Part shown: positions 26 through 14,655 of the stretch, one piece after another
How the letters are laid out: each line of letters starts with the position of its first letter
How positions within the stretch are numbered: the stretch's first letter is position 1
Origin: Raphidiopsis brookii D9
GTDB taxonomy: Bacteria; Cyanobacteriota; Cyanobacteriia; Cyanobacteriales; Nostocaceae
Assembly (NCBI GenBank): GCA_000175855.1
Contig: ACYB01000027.1
Coordinates: forward strand, 1-32,000
DNA length: 32,000 nucleotides
Reading direction: 5' to 3'
Position numbers and translations under genes: made by a program
The notes under the pieces: model-generated
Databases searched by the model: none
Told to the model about the DNA's origin: nothing
Seen by the model: the letters and a program-made list of their open reading frames with translations, nothing else

Positions 26-679
26 TTGAATGAGTTACAGCGAGACAGGGAAGAGCAAGCTCGCAAATGGGATGAGCAAAATCGTAAATTCGATGCTTTC
101 CAAGCTGAGCAAGCTCATAAATGGGATGAGCAAAATCGCAAATTCGATGCTTTCCAAGCTGAGCAAGCTCGTAAGTGGGATGAGCAAAATCGTAAATGGG
201 AGGAAAATAATCAACGTCTGGACAGAATCGAAGCCCAGAACAGTGCTACCCTGGAGGAAATCCAGAAAGCTAACCGTCGTTATGAAAGTGCCATTGGTGC
301 TATTGGTTCCCGCTGGGGTCTCTATTCTGAAGCTAGTTTCCGTAATGGACTCCAAGCTATTCTAGGCCAGTCCTTTGGGGTGGAGGTGCTCAATCTTACC
401 CTTTACGACCAGGAGGGAGAAGTATTTGGTCGACCAGAACAGGTGGAATTGGATATAATCATCAAAAATGGGCTAACTATTGTCTGTGAACTTAAGTCTT
501 CTATTGACAAAGCTGGTATGTACATCTTTGGTCGTAAGGCAGACTTCTACGCTAAAAATCAAAATAGAGTGGTTAACCGTAAAATTGTGATTTCGCCCAT
601 GGTGGATGAGCGAGCTATACCGGTAGCTAAATCCCTAGGCATTGAGATATATAGTTATGCAGATGTAGTGGTACCATAA
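26..679 (+). CDS. DUF3782-like coiled-coil protein with C-terminal PD-(D/E)XK nuclease-type core; probably the 3' part of a gene that starts left of the window
   Basis: 217-codon ORF whose only in-frame start is TTG at 26. It has N-terminal 18-aa repeats (EQARKWDEQNRKFDAFQA). These are followed by IGAIGSRWGLYSEASFRN...GRPEQVELDIIIKNGLTIVCELKSS...ISPMVDERAIPVAKSLGIEIYS, which gives the D...E-x-K arrangement of a PD-(D/E)XK core. The pattern matches the cyanobacterial DUF3782 family as I remember it. Frame 3 at nt 3-26 (IDEKFAEF) is open to the window edge and would join in frame if the T4 run at 24-27 were T5. Confidence 0.6.
   Translation: MNELQRDREEQARKWDEQNRKFDAFQAEQAHKWDEQNRKFDAFQAEQARKWDEQNRKWEENNQRLDRIEAQNSATLEEIQKANRRYESAIGAIGSRWGLYSEASFRNGLQAILGQSFGVEVLNLTLYDQEGEVFGRPEQVELDIIIKNGLTIVCELKSSIDKAGMYIFGRKADFYAKNQNRVVNRKIVISPMVDERAIPVAKSLGIEIYSYADVVVP
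53..197 (+). repeat. 54-bp intragenic tandem repeat, about 2.7 copies (units start at 53, 107, 161)
   Basis: Direct reading: unit 1 (53-106) and unit 2 (107-160) differ at 3 of 54 positions. Unit 3 matches for 37 nt and then diverges. The repeat is in frame and encodes the 18-aa repeat EQA(R/H)KWDEQNRKFDAFQA. Confidence 0.9.
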
Positions 680-878: not shown

Positions 879-3800
879 TCAACCTCTTAATAAAAATGCT
901 GTTAAGGAAATTTGCATACTGGTAGGTTTAATTCCTTCATCCAAAATTAGGTTTAACCTATCCGTATCTTCGAACAACTGAATAATAAATTTCTCATCAT
1001 CCAAATTTGATTTGTCCCCATCTGTATATTCCTTCAAAAGTTTTTGTACAGATTTTCCCTCTTTCCAGGTATTCAGTTTTTTTAGTGTACCTTTGACCTT
1101 ACTACGGTCTAACTTATCTGGGAAACTATCCAGCTTATTCAAACGACGTTGAATTTTGGTAATCCGTTCTGAAGTGATATTAATATTTTCCAGGGTTTCT
1201 AGTTCTTTTAGTTCTGCACTACCTTGTTCCTTGAGTTTCACCAGTTCGTCATAAATTGATTCAGCTAATGATATTAAATATTTTGAAGAAAATACATTGT
1301 TAGCTGCTGGGGTTTTAATAGCAGTGGCGATCGCCAAACCATAACCATCTTTTTCTCCTGTGATATTGTTCCAAAATAGGGTTTTTTGCTTATTTTTTAT
1401 AAGTTCACCATTGGGTCCGAAATATTGCACTGTTAGTGCTACTAATCCGGATGGTTGGTTTGGTTCATTGATTCGACCTAGAGCAATGGGATTTGGTTGG
1501 TAATCATCGCCCATTTTTTTTAAAAGTTCACTCAGCTCTTCACTGTGTAATATTTCATTTTGGGTATAAACATCTCGATTGGTTTCTTGTTTTTTATAAG
1601 CATCCTCCTGTAAATTACCTTGTTCCATTTTTCTAGCTTTAATGAGACTTTGGATAAAATCCACATATCCTGGTAAAATTTCGCCATCAAATAATGTATC
1701 ACCATAAATAGAAGATCCTAATGTACCGGTATCAGAAATAGGGGAAATATTGTAATTATATTCAAGACTTGTCTTATTTTCCTGTTGTTGAGATATTTCT
1801 CCTACTAACTTTTTATGTAAATTTTTTAGGCGAGATGCTTGTCTTAATAGTTGACTTTCACTGTTAGCATAGTAAACGTAAATATATTCTGCCTTATGTT
1901 GTTTCGGTCTATCAATCCTGCCAATTCTTTGCTCTAAAATCATGGGATTCCAAGGTAAATCAATATTAATTAAATAATCCGCATCTTGTAAATTTTGACC
2001 CACCGATAAGGTTTCTGAACCAATTAATACTTTAATTTCCTCTTCTGCTTGAGGAAGTTCTTCAAGATTTTTACAGGTAGCATGTGGAGCAAATAATCTA
2101 AAGATACTTTGGCGATCGCAAACAACTCGACCTCGATTAGGTTGTAGTACATCAGCAGGATTTACTCTTTGTGGTTTATCTGAATTGTCGGGATAATATA
2201 ATTTTGTGGAACCAATTAACATCCCAATACCCTTAGCTGCGATCGCACCATCACGGGTCATGTGATGATAATAATCAATTACAGTATCGCTAAAGGTAGA
2301 AATTAGTAGTACCTTATGACCAAGTTTCACTAACTCACGAACTTTTTGGGTAACTTGTTGTTTTTTGTGATCAACAAAAAACTCATTTTCTAATAGGGTG
2401 TGAATTTCATCCAATTGTTGTAAGTCTTTTTTACAATCATCCAGCATGCGATTATAAATCCTTTGGGCACTGTCAGGATCATTCTGTAGATTACCTGTGA
2501 AAGTATCTATAGAACTTCTTAATTGTTGACGGTTTTGTTCTGGATTTACTTGATTTTCTTCTTCCTCCTCATCTTCATAATCCTCATCTTCATAATAATC
2601 TAAGAACTTGTCTGAGTTATCTTTTTTATCGGAGTTAAAATTATAATGGACTAGTAAAAACTCCTTTAGTCCCTCCCCATCAAAAGAAACTGATTCTAAT
2701 CGTTTCTGCATTTGTTTAATCCGGTAACCAAAACTCTCAATAGTTCTACCCAAAGCATACATACTAGATTCAGCTCTTTGTAAGAAAAAGCGGCGCTGGT
2801 TAGATAACAAACTACGTTGTTCCACATTACTGGTTAAATAACGAATAGGGTCAGCAAAAGGAATATATAAACTAGTTTCAAATTGGGTGAAAATTTGCTC
2901 TAGCGCTAATTCAGTACTCTCTTCAAATTGTACTGGTAACCATTCCGCCACTCGTTTGGCATACAAGTTTAAATCCGGAGTAGCTTCTCGTAGCATTTGC
3001 CTGGTCCGTTGAAGAAACAGTTCCCGATAGGTGCGGCGAAATAGTTCCGTATTGTCAGTAAAGTTTTCCACACCAGTTTCGCGATTTTGAAACCAGTGGG
3101 TTACTTCTGGGGGGAAGTTTAAATCATTAAAACCTTCTGGACGACTAATAAAGGGTGAAAGGATATTATAAATATCTTCTCGGCGATTATTCCAGGGAGT
3201 GGCGGTTAAAAGCAAAAAATAACGTTGCTTGCCAGTTTTTCTATCTTGTTCTTGTATCTCTAAACAAGTTTTGTGAATACGGTTTCTATAATTGCGAATA
3301 CCTTCGTGGGCCTCATCAATAATTACTAAGTCGGGTCCCCCATAACGACCAAAGTCTGCCAAAAAACCACCTTTACGACTCATGAGGTTTTTATTATAAA
3401 ATTCGTAATCACGGGATTGAAACCCTAATTCTGCTAGTTCTCTTTCCCAGTTAGGATGAAGTTTTTTAGCAGCTATAATAGCAATTTTAGCTTGTGCATT
3501 TTGTTGAAAGTATAATTTAGCTACGGTAGCGGCTAAACGGGTTTTACCTAAGCCTACTGCGTCTGCACACACAGCTACACCAAAATTTTTCATCACTCTT
3601 AAACAATGTTGAGCGCCTGACTTTTGGTGTTCAAAGAGGGTGCTATTATTTAACAGTTCATCTAATAAATCACTGCGTTCTACTTGAAACTGTTGGGGTT
3701 TTTGCCGTGCTAACCAATAAAGAAAGTCACTAGGTGTGCCATGATTACCCGCTAAAATCATTTCTACTGCTGGTTTAAATCCCTCAATTTCTGCAAATTC

Positions 3801-5120
3801 AGGAATTTCTGGGGAATGAGTAACCACCGGAGGTTTTTTCGGTGCTATTTCATAACTTTGTTCAGTAGTTCTTACCTTAAACGCTTTTAAAAGTGTTGGT
3901 GGATGATTTGTGTTTATGGTAATTTGACCGGAAATACGCTCCGGTTCTTTACTATTAATGGTAACTTGTACCAGGTCATTATCAACAATTTGGATTTCTT
4001 CTACGTGGTCTAGATTTTGACCGGTAATTTCAACCTTGGTAGTCTTTCCTGAGGGAACGGTGTGGGGAGTGATAGAGTCAATAATTGGTGTTTTTAATTG
4101 ACTGCGACGTTCCTTTTCTGCTAGTACTTCCTGGAGGAATTCTAAACTGATATCAAATGCTATATCTTCCCGTTCCCATTCCTTATCAAATTGACGAATG
4201 TTCTCTAATATGGTTTCTGTATCTAGTTCATCCCAGGAATATAAAAAAGTGATACTTTCAGCATTTCGGGAATAAGCAGCGCGGGTCAAGTTGTCTGAAC
4301 CATCGTGTTGAATATGATATCCTAGGGAGTCGCTGAGGATTCCTGTTTTTTTATGATAAATGGCTCTTTCTGAGTCCATTTTGATTAGTTTAATCACCAT
4401 AAATCCTAATCTGACTAACTCAGCTAATATTTCTGTATGATCTAGTTCTCTATCTTTTAAATTTCGTAGAAACTCTTGTAAGGTGCGTTGGATAAACCGA
4501 GTGCGATAATTAGGGTCATGAAGTTTTTCCAGTTCTTGAATATCGGACTTTTTAGTAAATCCTTGCCAGTCCATTAACAAGCGAATTTTTCCTTCTGCTT
4601 GAATAATAGCAGCCAATGGTTCTTCATATAATTTCAGAATGCTACTATCAAAATAGGCTGTGGAACGACGATAAATTTGACTGCGCTCTAATACTTTACT
4701 AAAAAATTTATGGTACTTATCCAAATCATTGGGCAGATTGAAGCGACGCTGACGACCAGAGATTTCTCGGAAACTACCAGTTAATAAAGCTTTTTCTTTG
4801 GTGACATTTTCTAGATCCAAGAATTTTTCAATAATATTCAGCTTGGATGTTCTCAGTAAGCTCGTGCTGGGTAAGTCATTTTGCTTGATGGGGGTATACG
4901 TAAAGACCTTGCCAGCTTTTTGGTCTATTCTTAATAGTTTATAAGTTGTTTGTTTTTTACTAGCACCTAAGAATCTAACAACTTTATGTAGCAAGTTATC
5001 TGCATCACGATGTTTAAAAACCAACCAATACTGATTCTCAAGCCCTTTTATGGGTGTACCTTGGATGATGTAGTAAGGACGCTGTTTTCGGATCAGTTCT
5101 TGGATAAAGGTGTCCAGCAT
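879..5120 (-). CDS. HKD (PLD-family) nuclease - Ig-like (IPT/TIG-type) - SNF2/SF2 helicase fusion protein, 1413 aa
   Basis: Uninterrupted 1413-codon ORF. It has a single HKD motif, YHKKTGILSD-x9-GSDN (nt 4290-4355). SF2 motifs present: LFEHQ, Walker A ADAVGLGKT (3540-3554), DEAH (3306-3317), LLLTATPWNN, SVGQNLQ and QRIGRIDR (1908-1931). The inter-lobe insertion carries the acidic tract DYYEDEDYEDEEEEEN (2553-2600). The gene contains 3 HIP1 sites. Confidence 0.85.
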   Translation of the reverse strand: MLDTFIQELIRKQRPYYIIQGTPIKGLENQYWLVFKHRDADNLLHKVVRFLGASKKQTTYKLLRIDQKAGKVFTYTPIKQNDLPSTSLLRTSKLNIIEKFLDLENVTKEKALLTGSFREISGRQRRFNLPNDLDKYHKFFSKVLERSQIYRRSTAYFDSSILKLYEEPLAAIIQAEGKIRLLMDWQGFTKKSDIQELEKLHDPNYRTRFIQRTLQEFLRNLKDRELDHTEILAELVRLGFMVIKLIKMDSERAIYHKKTGILSDSLGYHIQHDGSDNLTRAAYSRNAESITFLYSWDELDTETILENIRQFDKEWEREDIAFDISLEFLQEVLAEKERRSQLKTPIIDSITPHTVPSGKTTKVEITGQNLDHVEEIQIVDNDLVQVTINSKEPERISGQITINTNHPPTLLKAFKVRTTEQSYEIAPKKPPVVTHSPEIPEFAEIEGFKPAVEMILAGNHGTPSDFLYWLARQKPQQFQVERSDLLDELLNNSTLFEHQKSGAQHCLRVMKNFGVAVCADAVGLGKTRLAATVAKLYFQQNAQAKIAIIAAKKLHPNWERELAELGFQSRDYEFYNKNLMSRKGGFLADFGRYGGPDLVIIDEAHEGIRNYRNRIHKTCLEIQEQDRKTGKQRYFLLLTATPWNNRREDIYNILSPFISRPEGFNDLNFPPEVTHWFQNRETGVENFTDNTELFRRTYRELFLQRTRQMLREATPDLNLYAKRVAEWLPVQFEESTELALEQIFTQFETSLYIPFADPIRYLTSNVEQRSLLSNQRRFFLQRAESSMYALGRTIESFGYRIKQMQKRLESVSFDGEGLKEFLLVHYNFNSDKKDNSDKFLDYYEDEDYEDEEEEENQVNPEQNRQQLRSSIDTFTGNLQNDPDSAQRIYNRMLDDCKKDLQQLDEIHTLLENEFFVDHKKQQVTQKVRELVKLGHKVLLISTFSDTVIDYYHHMTRDGAIAAKGIGMLIGSTKLYYPDNSDKPQRVNPADVLQPNRGRVVCDRQSIFRLFAPHATCKNLEELPQAEEEIKVLIGSETLSVGQNLQDADYLINIDLPWNPMILEQRIGRIDRPKQHKAEYIYVYYANSESQLLRQASRLKNLHKKLVGEISQQQENKTSLEYNYNISPISDTGTLGSSIYGDTLFDGEILPGYVDFIQSLIKARKMEQGNLQEDAYKKQETNRDVYTQNEILHSEELSELLKKMGDDYQPNPIALGRINEPNQPSGLVALTVQYFGPNGELIKNKQKTLFWNNITGEKDGYGLAIATAIKTPAANNVFSSKYLISLAESIYDELVKLKEQGSAELKELETLENINITSERITKIQRRLNKLDSFPDKLDRSKVKGTLKKLNTWKEGKSVQKLLKEYTDGDKSNLDDEKFIIQLFEDTDRLNLILDEGIKPTSMQISLTAFLLRG

Positions 5121-5209
5121 TTGAGGTTAAAAATGTCTAAAAATCACAGGTGCGGTTTGAGGAAATAATTATTTTGATTGTAGCAGATGAAAAATAACTA
5201 ATGCAATAT

Positions 5210-6265
5210 TTACTCAATGGGCCAGTTTGGTATGGTTTGATCAATTGATCGCATGAGTTTAATAGTTTGCTGTAGTGCTATAACTACGCGCTGATAATGT
5301 TGAATATCATCATCAGTTAGGGTGCGTCCCTTACGATCCTTGAGCCATTTTTGACAAACTTGATAACCTCCTATATAAAAGTTCCAAACTTCTTCGGGTA
5401 CTCCCAAAAATTTGTCACCTTTTTTGTTGATTAATACTGCATTTTGGGTATATTTAGGATATCCCGCATCTACTATTGAATTACCTCCATTTGGGGTAAA
5501 TTGGGTGATAAGGTTATTTAATTTGGGTGATTTCATGAGGTGCAGGGCTACTAATTGTTCTCCACATTCTGCAAGTTGACAAAATAGGTTATTGTTTCTG
5601 GTGAGGGGAACGCGGGGGAAGTCTATTTTCAGAAATTCAGCGTAGCGTGTGCGGTAGGTGGGGGAGTGGAAGATGGCATAGATATAGTAGAATATGGTTT
5701 CTGGTGTGGGGAGATAACCCAGGTTTATTTCTATTTTTTTGAGGAACTTTTCTGAAAAGTTGGGGCGTTTTTTTTGTTGCAGTTCTTGCGGTTGATTTGT
5801 GTCGGGGTAGAGGTAAAGGGGAAAAACAGTTCCTCCACCTCTACGAAAAATATTTTGATCTATAATTAAATTACAAATAAAAATGACATCCCAATAAGTT
5901 GATCCTATTGCTGCTCCTTGTCTTCCCAAGACTATGCCATAATTCAGATATAGAAAATGTTGCATAACACGATAATTTAATCGTGCCACAAATTCTTGAT
6001 GGTAAAAGATAAACCTTTGATCAAATGGTCTAAATATTTCTTGCTTAATATAAGTTTCTATTTCTTGATCTGTGATACATTCTCTAGCTGTAGAAGCATT
6101 CCATTTATCTTTATCAAATAATTGTAATCCAAAGATATCAACTACTTCTTGATCACTTTTATTGCTGTCTAGAAATTTTACTATGTTATCTTTGATTTCC
6201 TTAAATGAATAATTAATAACCAGTTTATCTCTCTTAGTAAGACATCCTAAAGAATATTCTTGCAT
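5210..6265 (-). pseudogene. C-terminal (type ISP-like specificity/TRD) remnant of an N6-adenine DNA methylase gene
   Basis: Sequences such as FHSPTYRTRYAEFLKIDFPRVPL and FYIGGYQVCQKWLKDRKGRTLTDDDIQHYQRVVIAL are typical of the C-terminal domain of type ISP / YeeA-like methylases (from memory). The frame is open upstream to 6349 (PKSEFYLLIPQDTYLF...) without a start codon. No SAM-binding or (N/D)PP(Y/F) motif is present. Confidence 0.7.
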
Positions 6266-6324
6266 AATATCAGTAATTTTTAAAAACTGCCCATACTCTG
6301 CAAATAAATATGTATCTTGAGGAA

Positions 6325-7005
6325 TTAATAAATAAAACTCAGATTTTGGTTAAACCTTAGAAAACTTTTAAGTAATGTATGTAAATATCCATTTTCCCGT
6401 TCTTGCTTGTAAGCGATAGGTATTACCTGCTCAATCTGACGAGCTGCTTGTGCTAATTTTAGGGCCAACTCTTTGGCGGTCTTGATTGGTTCATAAAACA
6501 CCCATTCCACTAAAGGAACAGACATCAGTACTTTAGTAGCAATAAATATTTCGTCTTGTGTAATTCTTTTTAGTCTAGACAGTAACTGCTCATCATCATA
6601 ACTAAAAGTTTGAATTTGTTGCTGACGCAATTTACCTTCTCCAGGAAGGATTAAAGAAATCCTACCAGATGACCCATTGGGTAAAATTAGATACATGACG
6701 GGTTGTTCCTCAGCTACTCGACTGATGTAATGACCGTAAATATCTTTTTGTTGCGCTTCCTCAGTGAAAAATCTTTTAGCCTCTAATTCACTTAAAGACA
6801 CCAGTTCTTCATAAAAACCTACTGCAATAGGGCAAGTTTCCGCTGCTTCCTCTTCATCATTACCAGGACGTAAATACCAAAACCGTGAACCTTCCCGATC
6901 CAGTTCTTTCACCGGATATCCTAACAATTGCCGTAATGCTTCCACACGAATTTTTTCGTCTTGGCTATTTCTGACAATTTGTAACTGTCCTGATGTGAAG
7001 GTCAT
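6325..7005 (-). pseudogene. N-terminal remnant of the same methylase gene (226 codons, different frame from the C-terminal remnant)
   Basis: The ORF ends ...AKELALKLAQAARQIEQVIPIAYKQERENGYLHTLLKSFLR followed by the tail FNQNLSFIY*. The helical segment resembles the region that precedes the catalytic domain in large type IIG/ISP-like methylases (from memory). It is co-oriented with ORF 5210..6265, with only about 60 nt between the two ORFs. Confidence 0.55.
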
Positions 7006-7030
7006 TTTATTCCTTTCTTTAATTTGTCTG

Positions 7031-7090
7031 AATGTTATAGAGTTAAAATGTTATAAACTTAGTCGGATAATGATGTTATATGATCATAAC
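7031..7090 (-). promoter_or_regulatory. three direct copies of ATGTTATA plus GTTAT-N6-ATAAC inverted repeat, upstream of the methylase remnant
   Basis: ATGTTATA occurs at 7032, 7048 and 7073. On the minus strand each reads TATAACAT, which contains a -10-like TATAAC. The inverted repeat GTTAT(atgatc)ATAAC lies at 7075-7090. The cluster sits 26-85 nt upstream of the ATG at 7005. A regulatory function is inferred only. Confidence 0.25.
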
Positions 7091-7185
7091 ACTACCCGAA
7101 TCTACTTAGCAAGCTTACTTGCTTGTTTTTATTACGTTTTATTAAGCATTGGAGAAAGGCGATCGCTCCTCAGTCTAAACTCCAG

Positions 7186-8904
7186 TTAAAATACTTGAGC
7201 TAAAACGAATGCAAATGCTGGGAGTTGAAGATGGATTTCTCCTGTTGATAATTTAGTTGCTTCACCAGACGTAACAACTAATATCTTTAGTTGAGTGAAA
7301 TCTCCATAACCATGGGGAGGTTTAAAACAAAAGTCAAATATGTCCTTACCCATATTCATGGCAACCAGAAAAGAATATTTTTCAGCTGGATCATGAATCA
7401 GCACGCACCGAATTCTATGATTTTCGTATAGTAAGGTGCGTCTACCATTTTTAATTAATTTATATTGCCAACGAGTTTCAGCAAGTTTGTGAATCAGTAC
7501 AAAAGTAGGGTGGTTTTTATTGTAGGGTTGAAAAGTTTTACGGTTAATTGGACCAAATTTCCAAGTACAGGCGGGATTATCAAACATATCTTCTCGTACG
7601 TAACAGTCGTGACCCATAGAATCTGGTTTTTTTTCATCCTCATGCCATCCTAATGCACCATCAAATTCTTGCTCTGTTCCTTGATAAATAGAAGGTGTTT
7701 GTGGTCCCAATATTAAACAAGCCAGAGCAAAATGTACGCGAATACGTGCTTGGTCTCGATTGTGAGTACGATGTAAAAACTCGTGGAAAACCCTGCTGGT
7801 GTCGTGGTTGTCTAGAAACATAATATTATTTTGCCAACCAGCATAATAGGAATGTGATGGTTCCAGGAACCCACAAAAATAATCTACCAAACTAGATAGC
7901 CAATTAGCATCACCCAATGAATGCTTAACTCTATAGTAGGTAGGATAATCAATCAAACCGGAAAATTTGGCCGAGTTATATTCAATCACCTCTTCGTGGG
8001 TGCTCCCCGCATGTTCAGCTATTTGCAAAAATTCTTTTTTTCCTAAAACGCTTGCATATCTTGATATTTCTTCTACGCAGGGTTCCCAAAAATCTAACCC
8101 AACGTGGCGTGCAGAGTCATAGCGAAAACCATCAATATCAGTTTCACCAATCCAGTACTTTAGATGTTGGATTAGTAATTCACGAACATAAGGGGTTTCA
8201 GTGCGCCAGTCCTCTAAAAAGCCAAATAGTCTTTGATTAACCATGTCTGTGTATTCTGGTCCATGAAATAGCAATGTATTCCTTGCTTCTATGGGAAAAG
8301 GCATAACCGCAGATTCATCACCCTGTATGTATTTGAACTCTCCCTGTGGTGGTCCACCATATTCTGGCCAGTTAATGCTATCAGCAATGTGATTAACAAT
8401 TACATCTAGAACAATGGCAATATCCAGTTCATGAGCCTTTTTGACCAGTTGACGTAAGCTGTGAATTGTACCTAAACGGGGATCAATCATCAATAAGTGA
8501 ATAGGATGATATCCATGATAGCCATCTGGAGCGTTGACGTATACGGGACTGAGAATAATTACTCTGATCCCCAGAGACTTGAGGTAATCCAAATGCTCGG
8601 TTACACCCGCAATTGTACCTCCATGACTTGAATGGGGACAAGAAAGGTCATAGTTAACTAAGCTTAAACGACTACGAATTGGATGTTTGCTGCGGGCAAA
8701 TCTATCAATCATGATAGAATAGAATAAACGTGAGTTCCAGTTTTTAGGACTGGATGTCATGGGTACAGATGGTTTTGGTCCGTAAACATGGTGATTATTA
8801 ACCATTCCCAAAAATACGGAGGGAATCTCTTTCATGGAGCGAGGAGCTTCATCGCAAACAAAACAAAAAATGGGATATTTCACTGATATGTTCAACGCCA
8901 TCAA
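7186..8904 (-). CDS. GH13 alpha-amylase-family glycoside hydrolase (catalytic part; gene appears to continue upstream through two frameshifts)
   Basis: GH13 conserved regions I-IV are present: DVIVNH, GFRYDSARH, LQIAEH, FLDNHD, with the catalytic Asp/Glu/Asp intact. The ORF-track start (TTG at 8904) is arbitrary. Confidence 0.85.
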   Translation of the reverse strand: MMALNISVKYPIFCFVCDEAPRSMKEIPSVFLGMVNNHHVYGPKPSVPMTSSPKNWNSRLFYSIMIDRFARSKHPIRSRLSLVNYDLSCPHSSHGGTIAGVTEHLDYLKSLGIRVIILSPVYVNAPDGYHGYHPIHLLMIDPRLGTIHSLRQLVKKAHELDIAIVLDVIVNHIADSINWPEYGGPPQGEFKYIQGDESAVMPFPIEARNTLLFHGPEYTDMVNQRLFGFLEDWRTETPYVRELLIQHLKYWIGETDIDGFRYDSARHVGLDFWEPCVEEISRYASVLGKKEFLQIAEHAGSTHEEVIEYNSAKFSGLIDYPTYYRVKHSLGDANWLSSLVDYFCGFLEPSHSYYAGWQNNIMFLDNHDTSRVFHEFLHRTHNRDQARIRVHFALACLILGPQTPSIYQGTEQEFDGALGWHEDEKKPDSMGHDCYVREDMFDNPACTWKFGPINRKTFQPYNKNHPTFVLIHKLAETRWQYKLIKNGRRTLLYENHRIRCVLIHDPAEKYSFLVAMNMGKDIFDFCFKPPHGYGDFTQLKILVVTSGEATKLSTGEIHLQLPAFAFVLAQVF

Positions 8905-8916
8905 TATCTATGTAAC

Positions 8917-9198
8917 CTACTCTATACTGATATCCCCCACCATTACCAATAGGGGAAGAATAACTGAAAACATCTTGAAGCCATTTTCAATTATGCCTTC
9001 CGTTTGTGTTGTAATGCGATCTATATCACAATACCCCTTTCCATCATTCAACTCATAAACTACCTGTCCAAAATCCGGATGTTTAGACACATGAACTCCA
9101 AAGGTAATAGAGATTTTTTCTTGATTTCTAAACACCCAGTTATAGGGTGCAATATCTGGATCTAAGTGTACTTCACAGTATTCATCAAAATAGTGCAT
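8917..9198 (-). pseudogene. probable N-terminal portion of the GH13 gene, separated from it by two homopolymer frameshifts
   Basis: It is in the same frame as 7186..8904 (9198 and 8904 are both 0 mod 3). Between 8871 and 8966 a different frame is open and reads FSYSSPIGNGGGYQYRVGYIDIDGVEHISEISHF. Changing A4 (8967-8970) to A5 and A6 (8865-8870) to A5 gives one continuous 670-codon ORF, 7186..9198. Confidence 0.5.
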
Positions 9199-9385
9199 GG
9201 TCAGAACTGGATTTACTAACAGTGTTTAGGTATTGCATATTTGCGGGATGATTTAAGATTTTCTCCTAATTTGAAAAATTTCTCTTTTGTTCCTCGCGGC
9301 GATCGCCTGCTAAAAATTCTTCCGCTCATTATATATCATCCTGTGCAGGTGCAACGCCTGGAAAATCTATGGTGACTGAGAATTC

Positions 9386-10735
9386 TCATTGGGTTCTTAC
9401 GTCGTTCATTTTTAGAACATCATTTAAAATTTGCTCATTGTTATTATCTCGGAAATAAAAATAATTGTACAAACAGATGGATATCGATAACATTATCATT
9501 CCCTCTATAATCATCAAAAATCCAACACCTCGACCTGGACCTGTGGCAATTAATTTGCCAATACTATTGGCAAGTATGCCATTAACATGCAGCATGGGCT
9601 CTAAAAATTTATCCGTTAGTGGACTGGCACTAAGATTACCAATAGCCACACCTAAGCCCACAGAAGTATGTAGAAATGAAAGCACTCGCCCTTGCACATT
9701 TGGATCAACGCTATTTTGCCAAATCGCACTGTTGTATCCTAAAACTAGGGGTAGGGTAAAGAAGGTAATAAACATACCCAGAGCTATAATTGAAACAGAA
9801 GGTTGGAATCCGGAAATTATTAGACCAATACCATTGAATGCGCTAAAAATGAATAGGGTGGAAATAGGCTTTTTACTTCCGCCCCAAAAGGTCATAAATA
9901 AGCTCCCAAGAATCATTCCACAGCCAGCAATCGACATAACAATGCCAAAATTTTGAGGGGAAGAAAAGGACAAGATTAGGGGATTAATCAAAACATTAGT
10001 CATACCGTCTAAAAAGAAATACAGTGTCATAAACATCAGTAAAATAATCAAAAAAATTTGTGATGAAATATTTTGCCAACCATCCACAATTTCATGAATA
10101 ATGGTAGAAAAACCTAGCCTGGATTTGATACTTCTTTCTGGTTCAGGGATATGAATGATTAAAAGAGTAAACAAACCAATAAAATAGGTACATAGATCAA
10201 TTATCAACAAGCCTTTAATTTGGATAATAGCAATAAGTATGGCCGCTAAAATCGGTGCGCCCAGTTGTCCTATGGCTGTGCTAAGATGAACCAATCCGTT
10301 GGCTCTTACAAGGTCATCTTTTTTCACCATCATTGGTAGGGCCGATCCCTTAGAAATCATTTGAAAAGAACCACAAACGGATGTAAAAAATGCTGTTATG
10401 TAGGTATGCCAAATTTGTAAGTTATCTGTTGCAATAAGCACTATGAGTACTAGAGTTACGGTAGCTGCGGCTAGGTCACTAAAAATTATGGTCCATTTAC
10501 GATTCGACCTATCCACTAATGCACCAACAAAGGGCGTGATTACTACTCCAGGTAGGGTTGTAAAAAACACGATTAAACTCAATCCCGCAACTTCGTGGGT
10601 GTTTTGATAAACCCAGATACCCAAACCAAAACCTGTCAAACGATTCCCAATTTCTGACAAAGATTGCCCTAACCAGAAAATAATAAATCTACGTAATTCA
10701 CCTACTATTAGTACCAGGTTAGTAGCATAGTCCAT
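9386..10735 (-). CDS. MFS transporter (EntS/MFS_3-like exporter)
   Basis: 449 aa, hydrophobic throughout with about 12 helices. The N-terminal LGQSLSEIGNRLTGFGLGIWVY is typical of the MFS_3 / enterobactin-exporter-like subfamily (from memory). Confidence 0.75.
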   Translation of the reverse strand: MDYATNLVLIVGELRRFIIFWLGQSLSEIGNRLTGFGLGIWVYQNTHEVAGLSLIVFFTTLPGVVITPFVGALVDRSNRKWTIIFSDLAAATVTLVLIVLIATDNLQIWHTYITAFFTSVCGSFQMISKGSALPMMVKKDDLVRANGLVHLSTAIGQLGAPILAAILIAIIQIKGLLIIDLCTYFIGLFTLLIIHIPEPERSIKSRLGFSTIIHEIVDGWQNISSQIFLIILLMFMTLYFFLDGMTNVLINPLILSFSSPQNFGIVMSIAGCGMILGSLFMTFWGGSKKPISTLFIFSAFNGIGLIISGFQPSVSIIALGMFITFFTLPLVLGYNSAIWQNSVDPNVQGRVLSFLHTSVGLGVAIGNLSASPLTDKFLEPMLHVNGILANSIGKLIATGPGRGVGFLMIIEGMIMLSISICLYNYFYFRDNNNEQILNDVLKMNDVRTQ

Positions 10736-10830
10736 AGATTTTCCTGTTATCTCCCCTTCTTTATTACAATACTATTGCCAATTTTTCTGGGTTCTCCGAT
10801 CTGGGATGCGCTATCCCGTTTAGGTTAGTA

Positions 10831-11859
10831 TTATTCTCGTGGTAGTGCATTAGCAACTACGACCATATCAATTAAATGTAATTTTTTTAATGTTTCATTT
10901 TGATTTACCTGTTGTTCAAGTTCCAAGATTTCCTCTACACTCTCAATTGGTTTAATTGGTCGATAGAGCCGAGCTTGAATTTGGGGATATTCAATATATG
11001 TGCCACCTTCCATAGTTTTATGTGTATAAAACTGGGAGTGGTAAGCTTCCCATTTCTTGATGGTAAATAGGGGTGTTGTGGGCAGTTGATAAAGTGCTGA
11101 TTCCGACTTGAATTCCTCTAAAAATATTGGTTGTAATCTAGGATTAAAGGGATTATCTAGGATAGTTTCTAACATTTCAAAAGGTATATATCTAACTCCT
11201 AATCCTGCACCTAAACCATTCTTACAAATTTTGGCAAATTCCGAGCGCGTAATTAAAACATGTTGATGAGCAAACTCCTTCTGGGCACGGATATGATAGA
11301 GGACGGGAGATTTACAAGCAAATATCACTAAAGAACCATTTGGCTTAAGGAAATTATAAAAAGCCGCAATACTTTCTTGGATAACATCTAAACAAATATG
11401 CTCAAAAATGTGGGAACAAACGATCAGGTCAAAAGGCCCATATTGGGCAATATCTGGACTTTGCATCACTTCATTGACAACATGGACTTTCTCACTATTG
11501 AGATGTGATGTATAAGCCAATAAGTTATTGTATTCCTGAGTTAGCCAAAAACCGTCATCTTTTAATTTTTTCAATAGTTCCTGATCATCATTCAGTAGAC
11601 ACTGAGCGACTAAGGAAGTGTGTAGAAATCTCCGGTGGTCAGGTTCGACTAAAACAATCTTTTTGGCTGTCCAAAAACGCGGTAGTAATCTGCCCAGTCC
11701 ACACCCAGCATCCAGAATAACTGCATCAGGGGTAATCAAGTCTTGAATGTTGTTGGACCAAACTTCCTGATCTCTGGCTTTCCAGGCTTGATGAGTAATA
11801 TCTGTAACCCGCTGGTATGGGTCAACTGTTTCATACACTGTAGCAGTAATCTTTTCCAT
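10831..11859 (-). CDS. class I SAM-dependent methyltransferase with unassigned ~140-aa C-terminal extension
   Basis: Motif I VILDAGCGLGRL, an acidic post-I LVEPD, and FDLIVCSHIFEH. The substrate is not inferable. Confidence 0.7.
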   Translation of the reverse strand: MEKITATVYETVDPYQRVTDITHQAWKARDQEVWSNNIQDLITPDAVILDAGCGLGRLLPRFWTAKKIVLVEPDHRRFLHTSLVAQCLLNDDQELLKKLKDDGFWLTQEYNNLLAYTSHLNSEKVHVVNEVMQSPDIAQYGPFDLIVCSHIFEHICLDVIQESIAAFYNFLKPNGSLVIFACKSPVLYHIRAQKEFAHQHVLITRSEFAKICKNGLGAGLGVRYIPFEMLETILDNPFNPRLQPIFLEEFKSESALYQLPTTPLFTIKKWEAYHSQFYTHKTMEGGTYIEYPQIQARLYRPIKPIESVEEILELEQQVNQNETLKKLHLIDMVVVANALPRE

Positions 11860-11957
11860 AATCTATACCTCAATAAAACTCCAAAAAAACTATTGGTAAT
11901 AGGTAATTACAACGATTATTGCCATTATAACACTGATATATAACATTGATAAAAGTG

Positions 11958-13352
11958 CTAACTTTCTCCCCCGACGACCACATCTCGAATCCTTAAACTA
12001 GGTCCACCACAACCTACGGGTAACCCATTCTGTCCCCCCTTACCACATCCACCAGATTCATCCCAGTGAAAATCATCCCCAATTCCTTCTATATCTGCTA
12101 AAGTCTGAAAAACATTGCCGGATAGGGTTACATCTTTTACCGGTTCCGCTATTGCTCCATTTCTAATCATCCATGCTTCACCTGCACTAAACGTAAACAT
12201 TTCTCCATTGGTCATTCCTCCTAACCAATTCCGTGCATATACTCCTTCTTTAATATCTGTAAATAAATCTACCACTGGTGTTTTACCTCTTTCTATCCAA
12301 GTGTTGGTCATCCGCACAATAGGGGAAAAATGATAGTCTAAACAACGAGCATTACCCGTGGGTTTTTCTCCCAATTTACCCGCAGTTTCACGGGAGTGCA
12401 AACGTCCTACTAATACCCCATCCTCAATTAATTGGGTGGTTGTGGCGGGCGTTCCCTCATCATCGTACAAATAACTACCCCGATGACCTGGAGATCCTGC
12501 ACCATCAAAAATTTGTAGTTCCTCTGGACCAAAACGTCTCCCCAAGGTCATCACTTCCAGTAAATCTGGATTCTCATAGGCCATGTCCGCTTCTGAAAGA
12601 TGACCGAAGGCTTCATGCACAAATAATCCTGTCAGTATGGGGTCAATAACTACAGTGTAGGTGTTACCTTTGACTGGTGGTAGAGATAAGGCCGTGACTG
12701 CTCTTTGGGCAGCTCCTTGTACTAAAGTGTCTAAATTGACTAAGTCATCATAATCTTTACGTGAACCTACTGTTTCTCTCCCAGTTTGTACTGTGTCCCC
12801 ATTCCTGGCTGTGGCAGCAAATCTCATTTCCATATCTACCCATGACTGCTCTATTAGGGTTCCTTCAGAAGTGGCAATTATTACTTTCTGACTACTATCG
12901 TTGTAACGAACGGATGTGGTCGTGATCCGAGAATCAACGCCCTTTAGTATTTCCCGGTAGCGATCGCATAATTGTTTTTTCTTTTTTAAAGGAACCGTGG
13001 ATGGGTCAATACCAGTTATGCCTAGTTTGTAAGTGGATTGAATAACAGGAATAGGAGCGAGAATGGTCTGTTCATCTCCGACTGTGCGTGCTGCGGAGAT
13101 AGCTTCTTGAATGCGTTCTTCAATATCGGCAATGTGGTTGAAGCTAGTTAAACCCCAACCACCTTTATGACAAGCCCGAACATGGGCACCCATGGAAACG
13201 CCTTCGCTAAGAGTTTCTACTTTATCACCTCGCAACAAGATATCGGTTCCCTCTGCTTCTTCCAGTCGAATCATTAAGTAGTCAACCTGATTTTTATAGC
13301 GAGCAATCAGGTAGTTAAGCAAATCATGGGTGTCCTTGGTTAGTCTAAACAT
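11958..13352 (-). CDS. tldD: TldD-family metalloprotease
   Basis: 464 aa with the HEAFGHLSEAD metal-binding motif and TldD/PmbA-family similarity throughout, including the C-terminal GGxGKGGQ..PVG..GP. Confidence 0.9.
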   Translation of the reverse strand: MFRLTKDTHDLLNYLIARYKNQVDYLMIRLEEAEGTDILLRGDKVETLSEGVSMGAHVRACHKGGWGLTSFNHIADIEERIQEAISAARTVGDEQTILAPIPVIQSTYKLGITGIDPSTVPLKKKKQLCDRYREILKGVDSRITTTSVRYNDSSQKVIIATSEGTLIEQSWVDMEMRFAATARNGDTVQTGRETVGSRKDYDDLVNLDTLVQGAAQRAVTALSLPPVKGNTYTVVIDPILTGLFVHEAFGHLSEADMAYENPDLLEVMTLGRRFGPEELQIFDGAGSPGHRGSYLYDDEGTPATTTQLIEDGVLVGRLHSRETAGKLGEKPTGNARCLDYHFSPIVRMTNTWIERGKTPVVDLFTDIKEGVYARNWLGGMTNGEMFTFSAGEAWMIRNGAIAEPVKDVTLSGNVFQTLADIEGIGDDFHWDESGGCGKGGQNGLPVGCGGPSLRIRDVVVGGES

Positions 13353-13388
13353 CTTTCTAGTTTTGTTTATAAGCTTGGCTATAATTAT

Positions 13389-13827
13389 TCAACCATCTTG
13401 ATCACTGTTAGGTCTAAAAACATATTTTTCAGCCACCTTCCAATAACGGGAAAATCTTTTCAGGTCAAGAAAACCATCATAATCAAAAAAGGGTTCCACT
13501 GCTAATACTTCCAAATCTAAATGGGGGCGAATCAAATCGCAAATTTGTGCAAATTTGGGACTGGGGCTCTTAGTAGTGATAACTAAACCAGTATTGTTTT
13601 CTCTGGCAAATCTAATCACTTCCTGTGCTACATCTCCCCGACGAATTTCCACTGGTAACTCTATTAGACATTCATAAATGAAAGTTATTCTTTTTAAACT
13701 AAGTTGCCATTCTGCAATTAAAAGCATCATCCCAGACCCAAATTGCTGAACTACCAGGATATTTCTTGAAAGCAGGACTATGGGGACTTAAACAGTCTCC
13801 GTTAACCCAAACTATTGGTTGATTCAT
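13389..13827 (-). pseudogene. small hypothetical protein of unassigned family (~145 aa) interrupted by a 1-nt homopolymer frameshift
   Basis: ATG at 13827, 16 nt after the HAD gene stop, opens MNQPIVWVNGDCLSPHSPAFKKYPGSSAIWVWDDAF*, with the stop at 13717-13719. ORF 13389..13730 continues in another frame as LLIAEWQLSLKRITFIYECL... Shortening the A4 run at 13720-13723 to A3 joins them as ...WVWDDALIAEWQLSLKR... Confidence 0.5.
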
Positions 13828-13842
13828 ATTCAATTAAATATA

Positions 13843-14655
13843 CTAAATATATATATTTACTAATTCAGCGGTTTTGGATGGTGTCAACTCCTGAACATTG
13901 GTCAACAGTATATTTGCACCTGCTTGCAGCATAATTTTCTGATAAGCATCTCTACGGGATGGAGTTTCCTGAACATGGGGTGGTAAAACTCCTACAGATA
14001 CCCAGGTTCGAGAACTGTCCAAAATTTTGGCTTTGGCTACAGTGTGCATATCCGCTACTGTATCCCCTACATATATAACCGGTTGTTTTTTGTTTTGGTC
14101 TTGTTTGGCAATTTCTAAAAGATTAATGGTAGCGAAAAGTCCTGTAGGGTCAGGTTTACCAGGTGCATCTTCCATGGCGATTAAAACTGGAGATTTTAAA
14201 CCTAAGCGACGCTCCAACACATAACTAGCAGATCCACGAGTTGCACCACTAAAAAATCCCCAGCTGATATTTGCCTGGGTCAGGGACTCCAAATAACTTG
14301 GTTCTAATAATAGGGGTTCATCACAAATATAACCATTCCAGTTTTCTGTGTCAGTACCGCGATAACGAGATTGAAAATAGGCAACAATGCTCTCATAATC
14401 TAATTGTAACTCTTCCCTTTGGTAACCCTGACTCACAAAATAACGGTAAATCAACTCTTGGGAACCCTCCCAATCATTGTTCCATATCCCCTCAGATTTG
14501 AGGTCGTCAATATCCGTAACCGTAGGACGATAGGCATAGTTAGTAAAATATTCTACTGTATCTGCCAAAGCACGGCGGTAAGAACCACTCACATCCCGAA
14601 TTACACCATCAATGTCAAAAACAATTATCATAATTAAGCTAAGAGCTAAATACAT
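13843..14655 (-). CDS. HAD-superfamily hydrolase (subfamily IA-like)
   Basis: Motif I VFDIDGVIRD (DxDG) and motif IV YVGDTVADM. The true start may be the internal MIIVFDIDG methionine. Confidence 0.8.
   Translation of the reverse strand: MYLALSLIMIIVFDIDGVIRDVSGSYRRALADTVEYFTNYAYRPTVTDIDDLKSEGIWNNDWEGSQELIYRYFVSQGYQREELQLDYESIVAYFQSRYRGTDTENWNGYICDEPLLLEPSYLESLTQANISWGFFSGATRGSASYVLERRLGLKSPVLIAMEDAPGKPDPTGLFATINLLEIAKQDQNKKQPVIYVGDTVADMHTVAKAKILDSSRTWVSVGVLPPHVQETPSRRDAYQKIMLQAGANILLTNVQELTPSKTAELVNIYI

Follow-up and report, generated by a model that had tools for sequence, protein, structure and literature searches.

A recently inactivated copy, in Raphidiopsis brookii D9, of a conserved methylase and HKD-Snf2 gene pair that probably constitutes a restriction-modification-like defence module

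A stretch of 32,000 nt from Raphidiopsis brookii D9 (assembly GCA_000175855.1, contig ACYB01000027.1, positions 1 to 32,000; hereafter the window) includes a long open reading frame (ORF), the 1413-amino-acid (aa) product of which is 100% identical to CRD_00577 of this strain. The product, referred to here as the giant protein, combines a putative nuclease domain of the PLD superfamily, carrying a single HKD motif, with a Snf2-type ATPase. Two shorter ORFs upstream are the remains of one gene for a DNA methylase with a target recognition domain (TRD). The locus probably represents a conserved two-gene, ATP-dependent defence module similar to restriction-modification (R-M) systems, in a copy that was inactivated recently. 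The methylase gene of the module is called gene 1 and the giant gene is called gene 2 below. Components of the D9 locus are listed here; the orthologous locus used for comparison, L065, is that of Cylindrospermopsis raciborskii and shares 98–99% DNA identity with it.

879..5120, minus strand: giant ORF, 1413 codons, intact; N-terminal domain, HKD/PLD, IPT/TIG, Snf2 and C-terminal region
5121..5209, minus strand: spacer of 89 nt separating the giant gene from the methylase remnant
5210..6265, minus strand: ORF of 351 aa, Type_ISP_C (TRD)
5823..6263, minus strand: variable core of the TRD, ~440 nt, compared with L065 8855..9298
6325..7005, minus strand: ORF of 226 aa, N-terminal remnant of the methylase
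6360..6367, minus strand: deletion junction, sole remaining copy of the 8-nt direct repeat AAGTTTTC

A preliminary description of the window had placed the giant gene 89 nt downstream of a co-oriented methylase/TRD gene. The gap was correctly given, and the same 89-nt spacing is found in the intact loci L001, L064 and L065. However, the upstream sequence consists of two ORFs, and no methyltransferase domain was found in either of them using Pfam, PADLOC and NCBIfam. The 351-aa ORF encodes a complete Type_ISP_C domain (Pfam, 6e-86, profile positions 3–341 of 342) and matches positions 720–1074 of 1096 in the PADLOC profile REase_MTase_IIG. Its homology to intact genes extends upstream to about 6364–6382, and its frame differs from that of the N-terminal part. 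The 226-aa ORF corresponds to methylase aa 1–217, as found by tblastn against intact methylases, followed by a 9-aa out-of-frame tail, and is 98% identical to L065 at the DNA level. It gave no match in the same three profile libraries, and its AlphaFold2 (AF2) model (pLDDT 86.8) gave no significant fold match in the PDB, all E values being 0.2 or worse.

In L065 (MTPU01000051), where the intact module occupies positions 6690–14242, the upstream gene encodes 1073 aa with the domains N6_Mtase, Eco57I and Type_ISP_C and is separated by 89 nt from a near-identical giant gene. The two D9 ORFs are the two ends of one such ~1073-aa gene from which 1,423 nt are missing. L065 keeps two copies of AAGTTTTC, at 7328–7335 and 8751–8758, and the 1,423 nt between them are absent from D9. 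As 1,423 is not a multiple of three, the D9 gene is also frameshifted. The deletion removed methylase aa ~216–689 and with them motifs I (DPACGTG, aa 396) and IV (NPPY, aa 531). An insertion element was considered as the cause of the split and was ruled out by the clean deletion between the 8-nt repeats. Since the methylase domain with both catalytic motifs has been deleted, the D9 module cannot function as an R-M system, and modification and methylase-directed targeting have been lost.

The giant genes of D9 and L065 (P0350) differ in 11 of 1413 codons, six differences being synonymous and five non-synonymous. The methylase deletion is therefore very recent and, for the same reason, the intactness of the D9 giant ORF is no evidence for continued function; the gene is still intact only through the recency of the deletion. 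Relaxed selection in the D9 giant gene, suggested by comparison with L001 (P0002; 92% identity, dN/dS 0.23), and an excess of D9-derived changes in the same comparison (42 vs 25 overall and 7 vs 0 at conserved sites) were both withdrawn, as L001 is a different allele or paralogue. Relative to the true orthologue, L065/P0350, a single non-synonymous change is D9-derived, and this comparison permits no statement on selection after the deletion.

Independent internal or N-terminal methylase deletions were seen elsewhere in the family (P0299, P0322, L043 118..1984 and L028 7290..8855), and methylase loss hence appears to be recurrent. P0299 joins the methylase N-terminal domain in frame to the conserved TRD end. 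Another contig of D9 encodes a second family methylase (P0331, EFA74183.1; 1010 aa as annotated). It retains DPACGTG and NPPY, and its annotated start is 68 aa short of that of the C. raciborskii counterpart.

Evidence for a two-gene module comes from the linkage of the two genes in other genomes. A distribution scan restricted to one genome per species yielded 54 loci, and linkage was counted in 47 loci, from the scan and from other look-ups, for which at least 3.2 kb of upstream DNA was available. Methylase-homologous sequence was present upstream on the same strand in 46 of the 47, with end-to-end coverage in 43, and the gene-neighbourhood survey proposed in the preliminary description thus bore out the association with methylase genes. 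The linkage spans relatives of 39–99% identity, with gaps as short as 8–17 nt. It is kept in a distant clade (P0125 and P0355), in which the giant protein is 43% identical over its whole length and 39% identical over the N-terminal 480 aa. This clade has a GC content of 35%, and HIP1 sites are absent from L062/L063. All 54 scan loci are cyanobacterial save three contigs of metagenome-assembled genomes (MAGs) that are labelled otherwise: L041 (Woesearchaeota), L033 (Bacteroidota) and L016 (Acetobacteraceae). These carry 18, 3 and 2 HIP1 octamers (GCGATCGC), respectively, and hence are probably mis-binned cyanobacterial DNA. The module has been found in cyanobacteria and the one distant clade.

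When the flanking ORFs from 59 loci (available flanks, up to 10 kb per side) were clustered all against all, just two families proved to be widespread: that of the giant, present in 59 loci, and that of the methylase, present in 47. A conserved third gene was sought among the clusters and rejected, as the next cluster (20 loci) is an antisense shadow ORF within the giant gene. This ORF of ~112 aa (e.g. L007 10406..10711) is open in 20 loci and is in all likelihood a by-product of the conserved coding frame rather than a genuine gene.

Intact copies of gene 1 encode proteins of 1012–1142 aa with N6_Mtase, Eco57I and Type_ISP_C domains, named 'type ISP restriction/modification enzyme' by NCBI. 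Over the methylase and TRD, sequence matches in the PDB are DrdV (7lo5, 4e-44), LlaBIII (4xqk, 1e-41) and LlaGI (5ffj, 1e-37), and no PDB sequence match covers aa 1–330. From its sequence, the product is composed of a family-specific N-terminal domain of ~215 aa, a gamma-class N6-adenine methyltransferase and a TRD of the type ISP/IIL type.

In eight loci (L007, L014, L029, L031, L035, L036, L051 and L056), the methylase and the TRD are encoded by separate genes, gene 1 being divided near aa 660. Inspection of the sequences showed small toxin-antitoxin-like pairs in the gap (Pfam PIN and DUF2281 in L007). Such pairs, Uma2-like genes and 204-aa nuclease-like ORFs also occur between the methylase and the giant gene in L015, L021, L038 and L046. 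These small interposed genes, which are not conserved, resemble VapBC/PIN and other antitoxin-toxin pairs, Uma2-like genes and selfish elements. In one Nostoc MAG (L024 8558..9655), a 365-aa ORF with an HKD-like motif of its own (HVKAYC...GSANLT) lies between the methylase and giant genes. In Calothrix PCC 7716, the methylase gene is directly preceded by a gene (L006 6312..6554) for an HTH_3 protein of 80 aa, which might be a controller resembling C proteins and is not conserved in other loci.

Intact copies of gene 2 encode proteins of ~1415 aa that begin with the N-terminal domain, followed by the single-HKD PLD nuclease, the IPT/TIG domain, the Snf2 ATPase and, last, the C-terminal domain. 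The division of the D9 ORF into five parts in the preliminary description was essentially right, as judged by Pfam, PADLOC, AF2 and Foldseek. The parts are as follows.

4716..5120, minus strand: N-terminal alpha/beta domain, aa 1–135, family-specific
4116..4715, minus strand: PLD-superfamily nuclease domain with a single HKD, aa 136–335
4290..4358, minus strand: HKD motif YHKKTGILSD-x9-GSDN, aa 255–277
3831..4088, minus strand: IPT/TIG Ig-like beta-sandwich, aa 345–430
3171..3653, minus strand: Snf2 ATPase lobe 1, aa 490–650 (HQKSG, GLGKT, DEAH, TATPWNN)
2331..3170, minus strand: long inter-lobe region, aa 651–930, conserved across the family
2556..2600, minus strand: acidic tract DYYEDEDYEDEEEEEN, about aa 841–855
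1896..2330, minus strand: Snf2 ATPase lobe 2, aa 931–1075 (KVLLIS, GQNLQ, QRIGRIDR)
882..1895, minus strand: C-terminal region, aa 1076–1413 (338 aa), conserved in the family

The first 120 aa were modelled with a pLDDT of mostly about 88–92, falling to ~50 at aa 41–60, and Foldseek gave no specific PDB fold match for aa 1–135. In a search of 1.8 billion representative proteins, this domain was confined to its own family, in about six clusters at 50% identity. It is a candidate docking domain.

The HKD motif has the layout H256-K-K258-x5-D264-x9-G274-S-D-N277. No second HxK...D motif was found in the giant protein, in agreement with the single half-site claimed originally, and the residues H256, K257, K258, D264, G274, S275, D276 and N277 do not vary among 35 homologues with 53–95% identity. 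The PADLOC profile for PbeA matched aa 134–324 (1.4e-38), and searches with the PLD part alone returned hundreds of HKD-SF2 (PbeA-like) proteins of ~700 aa with 27–33% identity. In the AF2 model of aa 1–480 (mean pLDDT 70.6), the best PDB match of the PLD part in Foldseek was NucT (6ehi, 1.3e-4), followed by Zucchini (4gel), Nuc (1byr) and R.NgoAVII (4rct) in the range from 1e-4 to 3e-3. Judged by sequence and model, the giant protein has the characteristics of the PLD/HKD nuclease superfamily and belongs to its single-HKD Nuc/BfiI/NucT type, in which the need for a dimer is predicted.

The Ig-like segment noted earlier is an IPT/TIG domain: AF2 gave beta-sandwich strands at aa 346–425, Foldseek returned IPT/E-set matches, Pfam TIG was detected with E = 1.1e-3, and PF01833 is precomputed for the homologues P0060, P0104 and P0105. 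The ATPase is complete, as had been stated, with HQKSG at aa 498, GLGKT at 523, DEAH at 602 and TATP at 639 in lobe 1 and KVLLIS at 936, GQNLQ at 1041 and QRIGRIDR at 1064 in lobe 2. These motifs are invariant or nearly invariant family-wide, GLGKT, DEAH, TATPWNN and QRIGRIDR being invariant. Among profile matches of the kinds that had been anticipated, SNF2-rel_dom (30.8 bits vs cut-off 24.9) and Helicase_C (39.3 bits vs 23.5; 8.6e-10) exceeded the curated cut-offs, whereas PLDc_2 (E = 3e-3; 17.9 bits vs 27) and TIG (19.4 bits vs 20.9) fell below them. By its motifs and profiles, the protein is assigned to the Snf2 family of superfamily 2 (SF2) ATPases. The inter-lobe insertion had been given as ~330 aa with an acidic tract; the tract is present, but motifs III and IV lie ~297 aa apart. 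A profile of the C-terminal part (aa 1075–1413) matched no PDB sequence.

The TRD region (aa ~680–840) is the least conserved part of the methylase, with column conservation of 0.45–0.54, as compared with 0.7–0.89 elsewhere. The TRD cores of D9 and L065 have no DNA match and share 44% aa identity, whereas both flanks are 98–99% identical; hence the cassette has been replaced in one relative to the other. This difference looks, from the sequences, like horizontal exchange of a specificity cassette. The TRD nearest to the D9 core among the fetched loci is from Pseudanabaena (52%). One C. raciborskii genome holds two paralogous modules, L004 and L065. In another strain of this species (L064), an L004-type upstream context (Cas2) and methylase are joined to an L065-type giant gene and downstream context, which indicates recombination and chromosomal rearrangement between paralogous modules.

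A housekeeping role of the pair, with a RapA-like Snf2 remodeller or repair factor accompanied by an epigenetic methylase, is very unlikely. It would be in keeping with the best PDB sequence matches of lobe 2, which are to RapA (3e-8), and with the remainder of the window, which encodes housekeeping functions (MFS transporter, PmbA/TldD, MurG and ATP synthase beta) and is not a defence island. However, the HKD motif is invariant, and the TRD is hypervariable and cassette-swapped. The distribution is patchy, and the chromosomal context varies between genomes; copies are also found on plasmids (P0015 and L058), and one copy adjoins integrase and recombinase genes. Toxin-antitoxin insertions and pseudogenisation are frequent, and several paralogous copies per genome are possible.

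By analogy with characterised systems, the module is fairly likely to be R-M-like and ATP-dependent, with an HKD-Snf2 translocase-nuclease that is under the direction of the methylase-TRD subunit. The methylase-TRD subunit would read a short, probably asymmetric site and methylate host DNA. At unmodified sites it would recruit or license the giant protein, and the contact might be made, more speculatively, via the two family-specific N-terminal domains. The Snf2 motor would then translocate along double-stranded DNA with ATP. Cleavage is expected to take two HKD domains, which together would form one PLD active site. The two might be brought together in a standing dimer, as in SauUSI and MtsD, or by two converging complexes, as in type ISP enzymes.

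Several points weigh against this interpretation. The activities proposed for the family are predictions from genes and modelled structures, and the AF2 model is of low confidence around the PLD active site (pLDDT <50 at aa 253–257 and 275–286). Giant genes without an intact methylase occur in the D9 window, at the P0124 locus and in L028 and L043; conversely, L039, L041 and L054 have a full-length methylase next to a broken giant gene. Given this decay in both directions, neither gene strictly requires the other to persist; such decay fits, without proving, a giant protein that is harmless when its methylase-TRD partner is absent. HmaA, a Snf2-nuclease fusion, protects on its own, against T4 (PMC11232893), and hence the dependence of the giant protein on the methylase is not guaranteed. 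Furthermore, PADLOC types the intact methylase as a type IIG restriction-methylase (649–716 bits), from which it follows that the methylase might carry its own nuclease.

The last point would be accounted for if gene 1 encoded a self-contained type IIG/IIL restriction-methylase with a nuclease in its N-terminal ~215 aa, and the giant were a separate or auxiliary protein that travels with it, which is considered quite unlikely. REase_MTase_IIG is indeed the best PADLOC family of gene 1, which shares its length and methylase-TRD organisation with type IIG/IIL enzymes (DrdV, MmeI and BpuSI), the 1012–1142 aa and the methylase-TRD homology matching the type IIL enzyme DrdV (1029 aa). The PD-(D/E)XK proteins RecE, BpuSI and SPARDA are also among the Foldseek matches of the N-terminal domain, which are weak and non-significant. 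However, the IIG profile aligns to gene 1 from about position 141–156 on, leaving its N-terminal nuclease part unmatched, and the region that would have to hold the nuclease lacks PDB sequence matches (aa 1–330) and gave fold matches with E ≥ 0.2 only. The N-terminal PD-(D/E)XK nuclease of type IIG/IIL enzymes appears to be replaced in gene 1 by the family-specific domain, which has no recognisable catalytic triad: across 28 homologues, no lysine of the domain is invariant, and that of the sole ExK-like triplet varies (EGK/EGG). Gene 1 further differs from these enzymes in being consistently accompanied by a separate HKD-Snf2 gene, on the same strand and at gaps from 8–17 nt across the full 39–99% range of identity.

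Conversely, the giant protein could be an autonomous effector, either SauUSI-like (modification-dependent, type IV) or HmaA-like, with the methylase protective, regulatory or unrelated and the D9 orphan perhaps functional; this is regarded as unlikely. SauUSI is an ATP-dependent PLD-helicase endonuclease that has been characterised biochemically and structurally (PMC7913695); it acts as a dimer with ATP-dependent cleavage (PMC7913695, PMC3141236). Like the giant protein, it joins an N-terminal PLD nuclease and an SF2 helicase-like motor in one chain. The protection conferred by HmaA alone and the four giants without an adjacent intact methylase named above point in the same direction, and ~470 aa of the giant protein without assigned domains could read DNA. 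In contrast to the giant protein, SauUSI is autonomous and has a C-terminal modified-cytosine reader and no partner methylase. No SRA, EVE, DUF3427 or other modified-base reader was detected in the giant protein with Pfam, PADLOC and NCBIfam, a difference from type IV enzymes that is not decisive, as a reader could be hidden in the domains without assignment. An autonomous effector would have no need of the near-universal pairing with a TRD-methylase, which would be a hazard in the case of a type IV enzyme. The intact ORF in D9, being 11 codons from its orthologue, carries no weight here.

For a methylase-directed translocase-nuclease, a close comparison on the side of gene 1 is with the type ISP enzymes LlaGI and LlaBIII. 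The preliminary description had viewed the pair as the type ISP inventory split in two. This is upheld for intact loci by the linkage, by the homology of gene 1 to LlaBIII, LlaGI and DrdV and by the variable TRD, but in D9 the methylase is deleted and only the TRD part of the homology survives. The methylase and TRD of intact orthologues are homologous to those of the type ISP enzymes, and the inventory of nuclease, ATP motor, methylase and TRD is common to both, a motor-driven nuclease under a methylase-TRD being the proposed shared logic. However, type ISP enzymes are single polypeptides, whereas the module has two, and the giant protein has additional N-terminal, IPT/TIG and C-terminal domains. 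Type ISP enzymes have an Mrr-type nuclease of the PD-(D/E)XK fold and a different, non-Snf2 motor. The HKD/PLD nuclease and Snf2-type motor of the module are not homologous to these, contrary to what the comparison had implied. Thus, the module resembles a type ISP enzyme split in two, yet it is not a type ISP member.

Among effectors that combine HKD and helicase domains, MtsD of the MANTIS/Gao_RL system is close to the proposed mode of action. It has an N-terminal single-HKD PLD domain and an SF2/Snf2 ATPase and is paired with a specificity-giving N6-adenine methylase (bioRxiv 10.64898/2026.09.23.753747; PMC12839542), as is proposed for the module. Its dimer structure has been solved; two PLD domains form one active site, and the protein, which depends on the methylase complex and follows it in the order of action, is needed for restriction in vivo (bioRxiv 10.64898/2026.09.23.753747). 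The helicase fusion PbeA (PMC10853773) is a further relative, from the Pbe defence system reported in PMC6459918. With SauUSI (PMC7913695), MtsD and PbeA, the earlier statement that HKD-Snf2 proteins lack an experimentally demonstrated function is outdated for HKD-helicase fusions.

It is extremely unlikely that the module is a reduced member of class 1 DISARM, MANTIS/Gao_RL (type-2 BREX-related) or PbeABCD. The giant protein does give partial profile matches to DrmD, DpdE, HmaA, the 'HKD+Snf2' model C3a139, PLD_Helicase and NF042964, and its PLD domain is nearest to PbeA-type HKD-SF2 proteins. However, the NCBIfam scores are far from the cut-offs (NF042964, 122.8/1100; DrmD, NF038317, 76.2/610; DpdE, 90/500), and the protein is ~500 aa longer than the NF042964 (895 positions) and PLD_Helicase (905 positions) profiles. 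No conserved DUF499, DUF3780/DUF7680, DrmA/DUF1998, CxC-ABC ATPase or DndE was found in the flanks of the 59 loci. MANTIS requires an AAA+ ATPase of the DUF499 family together with a DUF3780 protein, and both are absent here. As a positive control, the relatives P0221 and P0248, which are other PLD-Snf2 proteins and pair with a DUF1156-type methylase, do occupy operons with DUF499, DUF7680 and the DUF1156 methylase. Class 1 DISARM comprises drmA (helicase), drmB (DUF1998), drmC (PLD), drmD and drmMI; here there is no conserved third gene and no DUF1998 in the Pfam tables. The proposed equivalence to DrmC and DrmD beside DrmMI is thus reduced to an analogy of domain inventory, DrmA and DrmB being absent and the DrmD profile scoring 76/610. 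PbeABCD consists of PbeA (HKD and SF2), a CxC ABC ATPase, a DndE cognate and a small protein. Of these only PbeA is matched, by the PLD domain of the giant protein (aa 134–324), and the flanks contain neither the ABC ATPase nor DndE. As the defining partner genes are absent, the module is not DISARM, MANTIS/Gao_RL or Pbe.

Two further reports bear on the gene pair. CglI/NgoAVII systems also combine a PLD-family nuclease with an SF2 helicase-like motor (PMC5861437), and R.NgoAVII is one of the fold matches of the PLD domain of the giant protein. In a survey of programmed inversions, PLD(cd09178)-Snf2 genes lie beside Cj0031-like type IIG genes in two non-cyanobacterial genomes (PMC9881135). By description, these pairs have the same two-gene adjacency and variable specificity regions in the methylase gene; they are mentioned merely as genomic context, without analysis, name or test. 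A full-text literature search found no paper that analyses or tests this methylase and HKD-Snf2 family.

It is tentatively suggested, with somewhat less than even confidence, that the family represents a distinct, unnamed class of two-component ATP-dependent R-M systems. In such a class, the type ISP-like methylase-TRD subunit would have a family-specific N-terminal adaptor where a nuclease might be expected, and through this adaptor it would load a Snf2-driven single-HKD nuclease that cuts only when two copies meet. Exchange of TRD cassettes, and recombination between paralogous modules within a genome, would re-programme specificity. The class would then stand beside the Mrr-type and PD-(D/E)XK-type nucleases as a third, independent answer to the design of type I/ISP systems, and it would offer a tractable minimal model for the larger MANTIS and BREX-related systems.

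The pair of HKD-Snf2 and methylase-TRD genes is a previously unanalysed variant among the known HKD-helicase effectors, and it is defunct in D9. Should intact copies function in the proposed way, site reading, self-marking, ATP-driven translocation and cleavage would all be provided by two genes, whereas MANTIS/BREX-related systems take four or more genes for them. The module would then be a simple experimental system for studying the hand-over of unmodified DNA from a methylase to a PLD-helicase effector; nuclease activity in vitro is still unreconstituted for MtsD, an effector of the same type. The module is among the commoner large restriction-like modules of filamentous cyanobacteria, and hence it is relevant to the poor transformability and phage ecology of bloom-forming Raphidiopsis/Cylindrospermopsis, Nostoc, Nodularia and Pseudanabaena. 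The database names 'type ISP restriction/modification enzyme' and 'type IIG' overlook the partner giant gene. The message of the D9 locus itself, a fresh pseudogene remnant, is modest.

An alpha-amylase gene is situated farther upstream of the methylase remnant ORFs in the window. On the other side of the module lies one further gene.

26..679, plus strand: DUF3782-PDDEXK_10 gene, downstream of the giant gene and on the opposite strand

The N-terminal region of its product consists of repeated units similar to QAEQA(H/R)KWDEQNRKFDAF. D9 has one copy of this gene, whereas in C. raciborskii it occurs three times in tandem at the orthologous locus (L065 14442..16680).

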